From Lawsonella clevelandensis (GTDB taxonomy: Bacteria > Actinomycetota > Actinomycetes > Mycobacteriales > Mycobacteriaceae), in the NCBI RefSeq assembly GCF_003241315.1, contig NZ_QFOZ01000007.1:5845-69844 (forward strand): 64,000 nucleotides of DNA. Direction: 5' to 3'. The position numbers and the translations under genes were made by a program. The first letter of the stretch is position 1; each line of letters begins with the position of its first letter. Below are positions 29,419-31,406 of this stretch, in pieces. Under the pieces are notes generated by a model that saw nothing but the letters and a program-made list of their open reading frames with translations, was not told the DNA's origin and searched no databases.

Positions 29419-29787
29419 CTGGGAATCGGCAGGTACAATAAGCCCCATCATGCCCAACAGCTCATTAGCAGCAGCGACAGCTTCACGCTCAGCTACTCGA
29501 GCACGGTATGCAGTCCAATCGCGAATAATAAACGAGTACCGGCGAGTCTGCGGCACAATCATTGGCACAACAAGCCATAGAACAGCAACAAGTGGGCCTC
29601 CCCACGACGGAATCGCAGCCTAGAAAAATCGGGCTACCAGCAAATACAGCAGCGACGACCAAAACAGACGCACAAAACGCCACACACCAAGAAATAGCAA
29701 ACCAATGCCGCGACCAAGCAGCCACGCAATAGGATTTTGCCGCTTACCTTCTTCTGACTTAGCTTCAAGTTCTTCAGCAGTAAACAT
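29419..29787 (-). pseudogene. Element-encoded membrane protein N-terminus (possible transfer/spread gene), in-frame TAG at 29620-29622, fused in frame to the SGNH domain
   Basis: AAGGAG RBS, MFTAEELEAK..VARFF*AAIPSWGGPLVAVLWLVV..; same frame as ORF 28519..29568. Confidence 0.6.
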
Positions 29788-29814
29788 ATCAGTTCTCCTT
29801 ACTAGAACATTGCA

Positions 29815-29844
29815 GTAGGGGGCCAGTACAGTGCTGACCCCCAC
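29815..29844 (-). terminator. Stem-loop after the SSB-like gene
   Basis: GTAGGGGGCCAGTAC ... GTGCTGACCCCCAC imperfect inverted repeat. Confidence 0.45.
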
Positions 29845-29862
29845 ACATCATTATTTAGTTAT

Positions 29863-30207
29863 TCAGTCGACGGATACAGGAATCAACGTCTGGGCCTCGA
29901 TAGACATGCCAGGACACCCATTAATCGAGAATTGGTTAACCCACACGCGGCCATACACCTCATAAACAGAGAACCGCTCAAGATCGATCGGCTCCTCCAG
30001 GGAGAGGTAAACATCACCACGCATCTTGTCGTTCCTGGTAACATCCCATGCTTGCAACGCGAACACCGAGTACAGGGCCTTACCAGTCTCAGACATCACC
30101 GGCTCACCATTACGAGCCTTCGGCTTCAACTCGTCCGCAGGCTTATTACCCAACGACATGAACTTCACCTTAGAATTCAGCGACTCAGCTACAACCTCGA
30201 GTTTCAT
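29863..30207 (-). CDS. Small element-encoded protein, possibly OB-fold ssDNA-binding
   Basis: AAGGAG RBS; 114 aa beta-rich pattern ('GEPVMSETGKALYSV..MSIEAQTL'); sits after rep. Function is inference. Confidence 0.55.
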   Translation of the reverse strand: MKLEVVAESLNSKVKFMSLGNKPADELKPKARNGEPVMSETGKALYSVFALQAWDVTRNDKMRGDVYLSLEEPIDLERFSVYEVYGRVWVNQFSINGCPGMSIEAQTLIPVSVD

Positions 30208-30410
30208 TAGATTCTCCTTACTCAGTTCTCCAAAGTCCAGGACCTGCGGTGAATGCGGAGAACTGAAAACATCCACCGCAAGTCAATAAACGAATATCGC
30301 ATCCGTTCACTTTGTTCTCTAAAACATACTAGGGCAGAAATCAACCCAGCAAATTACGCTTAGAGAGAAAAAAGATTTTCGAATCAGCAAACTATTCCAA
30401 ACTATTCCAA

Positions 30411-30468
30411 TAGGGGGTACGGACCGGTCGTACCCCCTAGGACCCCCGACCGCGCGAGCAAGCTCGCG
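30411..30468. other. Origin-like double hairpin of the inserted replicon
   Basis: TAGGGGGTACG-gaccggt-CGTACCCCCTA (30411-30439) and CGCGAGC-aa-GCTCGCG (30453-30468), preceded by tandem CTATTCCAA. Confidence 0.55.
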
Positions 30469-30656
30469 AATTTTCGGGCCATCTTGGAACGGTAAATATT
30501 AGATTGTTCTTGTTACTGAACTAAACCGGCCACAAGTAAAGCCAGTATTCACTACACAGCGGGCCGCTTCCTTCACCTATCTAGCTGCACAACAAGGGGG
30601 GCATGAAAGAGAAAGCAAAGGGCACAGAACACGGCGGGCCGATTCGCTAACTTATA

Positions 30657-31406
30657 TTAGCTGCACAGAGAAGGATGAGCAGCCAAATCAGAATCCTCAG
30701 CAAATACCTCAGCCAGGGAATACACAGGAAGTTCCAAGTCCGTTAGGGTACGATCCAACTCCATTCGCCGATACGAGGTCAAACGCCGACATAGCGCATT
30801 CCACTGAGCCTTCGACACAGCAGAGCTAGAATACCACGGCAACTTCTTCAGCGACAGATTAGACACCAACCACACTACATGCCAATTTGCACGCTTGTTG
30901 TGATAGCGAGCCGACAAACGAGTCGGATAGATATCAATCGCCTGGAGAAACGTCTCGAACTTCATCTGACCAGAGAACTCATCCAGAAGCAATACTGGCT
31001 CATTCGAATACTCATCAAACGGATGCTCATAGTCAGAGACCCGGTAAATAGTATCCATGTCATCGACGCTGTTGTACACCATATGCGTCTTCCCAACACC
31101 CGGCAGGCCATAAAGGTAGTGAACCTCAAGATCCTTACGATAACCACGGCCAACACGAGACTGCTGAGCTTGATACATACGATCCACATCACGATGACGG
31201 TGCAGCAACTCAGGATGCTTCAGAAGCACTTGATTAGAAGTTAGACCCTCATTCATAACAAGATTACGTATCTTCAGAGTTTCATCATCATCGGTGTCTA
31301 TCAGGTCCGCGAGGTCCATCTCCAGGAACTTGCCACCCACAAGAGGCGGCTGATCAGGAACCCGAGTAGACAACTTCAGCACATAGCTACGAGCAGGCAG
31401 AGCCGA
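30657..31406 (-). pseudogene. rep: 5'-truncated Rep (HUH motif III plus SF3 helicase), pCRESS/circovirus-like
   Basis: 'YVLKLSTRV' (YxxK), Walker A 'YGLPGVGKT', Walker B 'LLLDEF', motif C 'VSN', Arg finger 'ALCRRL'; HUH motifs I/II absent. Confidence 0.85.

Follow-up and report, generated by a model that had tools for sequence, protein, structure and literature searches.

A probable fragment of a pCRESS3 element inside a GDSL/SGNH lipase gene of Lawsonella clevelandensis

By analyzing a stretch of 64,000 nucleotides of Lawsonella clevelandensis DNA (the window), we found a 1,987-bp segment on the minus strand that splits the gene of a predicted secreted lipase and carries a truncated rep gene, a gene for a 114-aa protein and the start of an FtsK/SpoIIIE gene (Table 1). 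Its true ends are 29422 and 31408, close to the limits first proposed (29419 and 31406), and it occurs once in the 1.59-Mb genome (G000); the same relic measures 2,058 bp in a metagenomic copy (L020). As predicted, the Rep-type ORF, the 114-aa gene and a 55-aa ORF are all on the minus strand, and TAAGGAGAA, the proposed common ribosome-binding site, lies upstream of both small genes (30212-30220 and 29793-29801); 27 copies of this sequence are found in the whole genome. A deviant composition had also been put forward. The GC content of the insert is indeed lower than that of the window (0.494 vs 0.557), but the contrast is poor support for a foreign origin because 22% of 782 genomic 2-kb windows are as low (<=0.495). 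The anticipated GC hairpins are present (30453-30468 and 30413-30437) and the 371-nt spacer folds better than shuffled sequences (z = -3.1). These hairpins are possibly a single-strand origin or a regulatory element.

Table 1. Coordinates of the features of the inserted segment and of the lipase gene around it
Feature	Position	Strand	Basis or remark
3' catalytic part of the GDSL/SGNH lipase gene, split from the leader	28519..29421	-	PF13472 above cut-off
N-terminal membrane part of an FtsK/SpoIIIE (TraB-like) gene	29422..29787	-	in-frame stop at 29620-29622
Junction 2, 6-8 nt ((CC)GATTCC)	29422..29429	-	common to ftsK and the lipase gene
OB-fold SSB-like protein (predicted), 114 aa, DUF961/OrfM/2k5d type, intact	29863..30207	-	model, structure alignment and homology
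Two GC-rich hairpins upstream of the SSB gene	30413..30468	-	structure kept in L018/L019, sequence changed; not the nick site
About 20 nt replacing ~1.45 kb of L018 with integrase gene and attP	30518..30537		blastn of L018 against the genome
Two imperfect 27-nt direct repeats, 75 nt apart, after rep	30554..30655		also in the intact element (L018 self-match)
Truncated pCRESS3 Rep	30657..31408	-	motif III, oligomerisation region and SF3 helicase kept; motifs I and II gone
Junction 1, 10 nt (AGTCGGCTCT)	31399..31408	-	encodes lipase residues; also in the rep gene of the element
5' part of the host GDSL/SGNH lipase gene, ATG and hydrophobic leader	31399..31502	-	matches the N-terminus of intact lipase P0057

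The rep ORF (30657-31439, 260 codons) contains YVLK, GLPGVGKT, LLDEF, VSN and RRL, with the Tyr codon of motif III at 31383-31385, and passed the profile check against the SF3 family PF00910 above cut-off (E = 3.3e-5). Hence, the prediction of an HUH+SF3 Rep held for motif III and all SF3 motifs, but the protein is truncated: only the C-terminal 249 residues are kept and motifs I and II are missing. By searching proteins we obtained an intact homologue (P0003) of 345 aa and 95% identity, in which motifs I (WCATL), II (HWQ) and III are visible and which is a two-domain HUH + SF3 Rep, matching PF00910 above cut-off and PF02407 (Viral_Rep) below it (E = 3.4e-4). The Rep family is large, since a profile search returned 2,984 representatives at E<=1e-10. 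No match was obtained with P0003 in the viral contig set, with query A1 in the genome contig set or with query A2 in 60 relatives (0 matches), the PHROGs search gave no result, and query A1 gave a single weak match, of another type, in 400 Actinomycetes.

The 114-aa gene proved to be real. The AF2 model of its product has a pLDDT of 92 (10-row alignment), and VIA-align placed it near SSBs, ICESt3 OrfM and 2k5d with modest scores (Z 4.7-5.3; rmsd 3.3-4.1 over 82-89 residues). Foldseek against PDB and BFVD returned nothing at E<=0.001, with SSBs dominating the PDB rows; the Atlas lead was DUF961, and the protein is 40% identical to the SSB of a C. acnes element described below. Together, these data suggest an SSB-like protein with an OB-fold.

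What had been taken for a membrane-protein gene exists as a 55-aa hydrophobic ORF (29620-29787), but it is only part of the first ~145 codons of an FtsK/SpoIIIE gene, whose frame is ended by the in-frame stop and then by the junction. This stump is 89% identical over 119 aa to the FtsK of an intact element (L018). The catalytic part of the lipase is 100% identical to the intact proteins P0047 and P0057 and, compared with P0057, the host lost ~7-9 bp, about three codons, at the insertion; the host side of both junction microhomologies is deduced from this protein and not from empty-site DNA. The window assembly is devoid of 59 bp at 31496/31497 and of 71 bp at 29429/29430, both of which are present in L020, in another relic copy (L021) and in 4/4 runs, and the 71-bp deletion is either a strain-specific change or an assembly error. 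We considered whether the FtsK membrane segment could be fused in frame to the lipase as a new anchor, and rejected this as a general feature: it needs the assembly-specific 71-bp deletion, and 1 contig encodes the fused 347-aa protein, against at least 1000 for the unfused 83-aa form. Both ends also carry a 14-nt near-repeat (each copy reading QSALP), which we discarded as an att core or target duplication, the two copies being in different frames relative to P0057 and the att site lying elsewhere. The locus varies in other ways too. In three congeners (L011, L012, L013), nrdD and the GDSL lipase are separated by another secreted lipase-like gene; the window species has none there (31502-31852) and carries 27-37% paralogues on C6 and C23. 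Replacement of this gene of the congeners (G001-G003) by the element was ruled out, as the empty allele loses only ~3 codons. Also, three GDSL-lipase paralogues are clustered near an oligopeptide ABC transporter operon (27393-29421 and about 20600-21400).

A metagenome scan gave five loci, two of the intact type (L018 and L019, hereafter the parent) and three further relic copies (L020, L021 and L022). L018 has a 732-bp terminal repeat and thus a 4,950-bp unit, L019 holds the element in tandem copies, and SSB homologues sit on 4,951- and 4,952-bp contigs. Both intact loci encode the 114-aa SSB-like protein, a 475-aa FtsK/SpoIIIE ATPase whose N-terminus corresponds to the "membrane gene" of the window, a full Rep and a convergent tyrosine integrase. 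The complete ATPase matches PF01580 (E = 4e-18), with plasmid TraB as best NCBIfam match, below cut-off, and the integrase matches PF00589 (E = 6e-16). Compared with L018, the relic has lost 1,442 bp between its ends (FtsK motor, origin and Rep N-terminus) and a further ~1.45 kb with integrase and att. Its gene order Rep-SSB-FtsK spans the att position of L018, so its source was a circle or a tandem array. In agreement with the original prediction, there is no integrase in the window, nor any homologue in the genome (tblastn); its absence is a trait of the relic and not of the family, since L018 and L019 have one. Since its rep has kept neither motif I nor motif II, and since it contains no origin, integrase, att or FtsK motor, the relic is likely unable to replicate or move. 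In the first tandem copy of L019 (3646-3993), most of the integrase gene is deleted, giving a 3,650-bp repeat.

The suggestion that the element was of an undescribed kind did not hold, since ProAcn-E1, a pCRESS3 element of C. acnes, is its orthologue. Two C. acnes loci (L025/L026) carry the same four genes in the same order with 40, 56, 43 and 52% identity, and their Rep, 44% identical to the parent Rep, matches WP_002529618.1. PMC6668415 assigns this protein to ProAcn-E1, a 4.9-kb element at tRNA-Pro with an 18-bp att and genes for a "2k5d-like" SSB, FtsK, Rep and integrase, and ProAcn-E1 is also mentioned as an integrated pCRESS plasmid in bioRxiv 10.1101/2025.09.09.675206. In Supplementary Note 1 of PMC6668415, pCRESS3 Reps are defined by HUQ in motif II, Asn in motif C and a motif III other than YLxH, in elements with FtsK and SSB and no viral structural genes; P0003 shows HWQ, VSN and YVLK. 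Quick trees, computed without pCRESS1/2 reference sequences (32 rows in the second one), joined the relic and C. acnes Reps with SH-aLRT values of 91 and 88, below the 95 mark, and apart from inovirus Reps and small IMG/VR circles. The parent also matches the integrated pCRESS plasmid type in its FtsK ATPase, SSB, tyrosine integrase and att within a tRNA gene. Taken together, gene content and Rep motifs identify the segment as a fragment of a new member of pCRESS3, a known type of element, and our confidence in this assignment is higher than in the insertion mechanism proposed below. The parent resembles ProAcn-E1 in its four genes and their order, its size (~4.9 kb), tRNA-Pro target, HUQ motif and motif C Asn, with 40-56% identity, and differs as a separate lineage (Rep identity 43-44%); the window copy is a broken piece within a lipase gene that has lost integrase, att site, origin, Rep motifs I-II and FtsK motor. 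Another pCRESS3 member, p4M of Bifidobacterium pseudocatenulatum, is free and integrase-less and shares a DUF961-like gene, FtsK and RepA (35% identity), but has a separate 147-aa gene before a shorter FtsK; its small gene and the 114-aa protein do not resemble each other in a pairwise comparison.

Upstream of rep, L018 and L019 contain a 150-nt gap with GAGTATTAC in the loop of an 11-bp hairpin, and p4M has a TAGTGTTAC hairpin 48 nt before rep. We found such a NAGTRTTAC hairpin within 500 nt upstream of rep in 9/10 actinobacterial elements (L018, C. acnes L026, p4M, L043, L044, L048, L070, L072 and L074, but not L071), while the chance expectation is about 0.0003 per 530 nt of host genome. 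Eight positives have a perfect stem of at least 8 bp and L048 a bulged one; L070 and L072 share one origin, the near-duplicates L019 and L025 were left out of the count, and L070, L071, L072 and L074 (3/4 positive) were added after the motif was noticed. The same hairpin occurs in 3/3 inovirus records examined, out of 6 matches, and such a stem in 0/4 Clostridia-type loci. By analogy with the viral case, Rep very probably nicks at this hairpin, 113 nt upstream of rep in the parent. The relic has no nonamer hairpin origin, and its GC hairpins, considered as a double-strand origin, were ruled out. Circo-, nano- and smacovirus replicons share with the parent an HUH+SF3 Rep with HUQ motif and the NAGTRTTAC hairpin loop, and the parent differs from them by its bacterial host, the lack of a capsid gene and the presence of integrase and FtsK. 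We take nonamers of the NAGTRTTAC type to be those assigned to the origins of these viruses; the text of PF02407 gives AGTATTAC as nick sequence.

The literature searched, judged mostly from listings, contained no report of a pCRESS nonamer origin or of a Lawsonella pCRESS element. In the available text of PMC6668415 and its 14 supplementary files, there is no mention of a nonanucleotide, and a search of 13 of these files for Lawsonella gave 0 matches. We see about an even chance that the pCRESS3 nonamer hairpin is previously unreported. The p4M hairpin may already be mentioned in the work of Gibbs et al. 2006 on this plasmid.

Several related loci deviate from the common pattern. The Mobiluncus-type pCRESS3 element L071 (G627) has the order integrase-Rep-SSB-FtsK and no nonamer hairpin in 3,993 bases, so that its origin may differ from the nonamer type. 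A pCRESS3 rep is broken near its start in L043 (7001-7972) and another is split by about 3.6 kb in L073/L074 (G602), and the Arsenicicoccus element (L044:7901-9448) has, by eye, a serine-recombinase-like gene instead of the tyrosine integrase. In the inovirus records of bajarodino viruses 2, 56 and 30 (L015:1955, L016:1851 and L017:2947), a Zot gene occurs together with an HUH+SF3 Rep of the pCRESS3-like type, and a TAGTATTAC hairpin lies upstream of Rep; these three appear to be filamentous phages on a CRESS-type replicon.

Next, we considered how the relic is distributed. It is not conserved core, being found in none of three congeneric genomes, from which G000 is separate at species level, and an empty allele is common within the species; these negative tallies include the unpublished genome G019, on which no positive claim depends. 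Contig counts are 758 for the uninterrupted 360-aa lipase (P0057; WP_394268244.1), 753 for the relic Rep fragment and 589 for the leaderless 275-aa lipase, and such counts do not represent independent samples (40 members read per cluster, 15 listed). Since empty lipase and relic Rep are both common, the insertion is polymorphic and likely recent. Intact elements are rarer, with FtsK on 13 and 64 contigs and integrase on 17 and 83; contigs of 222 kb and 352 kb are among their carriers. In 4/4 runs from 4 studies (of 24 runs listed; three of the four are flagged as possible sources of the window DNA), 0-1 base of the 2-kb relic is changed, and 29430-31496 is identical in L020 and L021. Between relic and intact elements, rep differences divide 44:10 and 45:12 into synonymous and nonsynonymous types; being mostly synonymous, this divergence is older than the insertion. 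Near-identity across runs and mainly synonymous rep differences point to a likely single recent insertion, whose source lineage had diverged but was still functional. A few relic copies (P0274) do not have the ftsK stop, and the stop does occur in an L019-type element (P0256); this pattern suggests recombination or chimeric assembly and makes a one-way story less clean.

The likely donor was approached through the att site. L019 ends in the 3' end of tRNA-Pro(TGG) and L018 holds the matching attP core; the att of these elements agrees with a tRNA-Pro(TGG) 3' end at 25/26 nt. The core has a G in L018 and L019 where tRNA-Pro of G000 and of 3/3 congeners has a T, and the G form was found in 50/151 Actinomycetes genomes searched, G000 not among them. 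This single tRNA base, on which the donor argument rests, hints that the intact elements live in another genus, and we lean moderately towards a cross-genus origin of the relic. The left flank of L019, a protein-coding gene fragment with a degenerate att facing the tRNA-Pro end on the right, gave weak partial matches of 80-90% in 6 only of 401 genomes; this arrangement reflects either a secondary site or a chimera. Finally, the relic Rep is identical over 249 aa to the intact Reps P0010 and P0018, on contigs of 3,769 and 2,500 bp, which suggest either an integrase-less ~3.5-kb parent like p4M or relic/intact chimeric assemblies.

These observations uphold the core of the original prediction, namely that a rolling-circle element with a CRESS-type Rep has left a relic in the chromosome. 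With a probability of roughly 0.8, we propose that a pCRESS3 fragment was inserted once and recently into the lipase gene via two microhomologies and can no longer replicate or move. The intact element would excise from tRNA-Pro by its tyrosine integrase, Rep would nick in the NAGTRTTAC loop, 113 nt before its own gene, and unwind the DNA by its SF3 domain, the OB-fold protein would coat the single strand, and the membrane-anchored FtsK/TraB-like ATPase would move DNA to another cell, AICE-style or via a borrowed conjugative pore. The copy that entered the Lawsonella lineage would have been circular, with its integrase probably lost beforehand (~3.5 kb), and probably came from another genus of skin actinobacteria. 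Recombination at the 10-nt and 6-8-nt matches would have put it in place of ~7-9 bp of the lipase gene and so parted the leader from the catalytic domain. By clonal spread, the relic allele would then have reached roughly half of the population sampled.

The relic could instead be kept by selection, either because loss of the lipase is favoured or because the SSB and the nuclease-less helicase are expressed and interfere with incoming pCRESS3 elements. Its high frequency (753 vs 758 contigs), the intact SSB and helicase frames, the good ribosome-binding site of the SSB gene and nine runs recorded as RNA that contain the stretch go in this direction. Yet, intact frames and a high frequency would equally be expected of a neutral insertion that is young and carried by a clonal lineage, further GDSL paralogues exist in the genome, and the runs labelled as RNA consist of contigs whose source may be DNA, so that we find selection improbable. 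Integration of a whole element at a secondary site by its integrase, followed by trimming through deletions, is still less probable, indeed very unlikely: although the left end of L019 has a degenerate att core beside a protein-coding gene fragment and secondary sites may thus serve, both relic ends are inside rep and ftsK, a long way from att, the place of att and integrase falls within the relic, where both are missing, and the host lost only ~7-9 bp.

The original prediction also raised an inovirus-like element, and the remnant of a filamentous phage with a CRESS-type Rep would account for some of the data, since six bajarodino records have Reps 25-32% identical, their origin hairpin is the same in the three examined, and the size of a ~5-kb circle with Rep and SSB would suit an inovirus. 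We regard this as extremely improbable. The intact element consists of four genes that fill 82% of the L018 unit, all four long ORFs are assigned to functions other than a capsid, and the gaps of at most 274 nt leave little room for small single-TM coat proteins. Moreover, the ATPase matches PF01580, best TraB, with no Zot at E<=0.1, and the three inovirus genomes compared share Rep only, on a separate branch.

AICEs comprise an integrase, a Rep and an FtsK/SpoIIIE-type Tra, together with an excisionase, and transfer themselves by Tra. The parent carries the set Int + Rep + FtsK/SpoIIIE Tra in an actinobacterium; its four assigned genes include no excisionase. Actinomycete AICEs, whose definition used here comes in part from PMC3218068, share this compact Int/Rep/FtsK module, and streptococcal IMEs with Rel_PF02407 and TcpA (PMC5357655) likewise combine a tyrosine integrase, an initiator of rolling-circle replication and an ATPase of the FtsK family; the hosts differ, and the AICE surveys, as far as those sources go, used other Rep families. 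By analogy, the parent may work like a small AICE or a streptococcal Rel_PF02407/TcpA IME.

A broader joint reading, which we offer tentatively and at somewhat less than even odds, would be that pCRESS3 elements and circo-, nano- and smacoviruses share a cis origin, that the viruses inherited from these plasmids the whole Rep-plus-origin module instead of the protein alone, and that some inoviruses captured it. The ~4.95-kb parent would then be a minimal AICE crossing genera among non-mycelial skin actinobacteria, and one such crossing would have cost about half of a Lawsonella population a secreted lipase. Taken alone, the relic is an ordinary dead plasmid fragment; it can serve as a strain marker and as a natural lipase knockout in a skin commensal, while its parent represents a second skin-associated pCRESS3 lineage besides ProAcn-E1. 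A conserved virus-type origin offers a cheap direct test of the plasmid origin of CRESS viruses, and the intact element could give a small integrative vector for poorly tractable skin actinobacteria.
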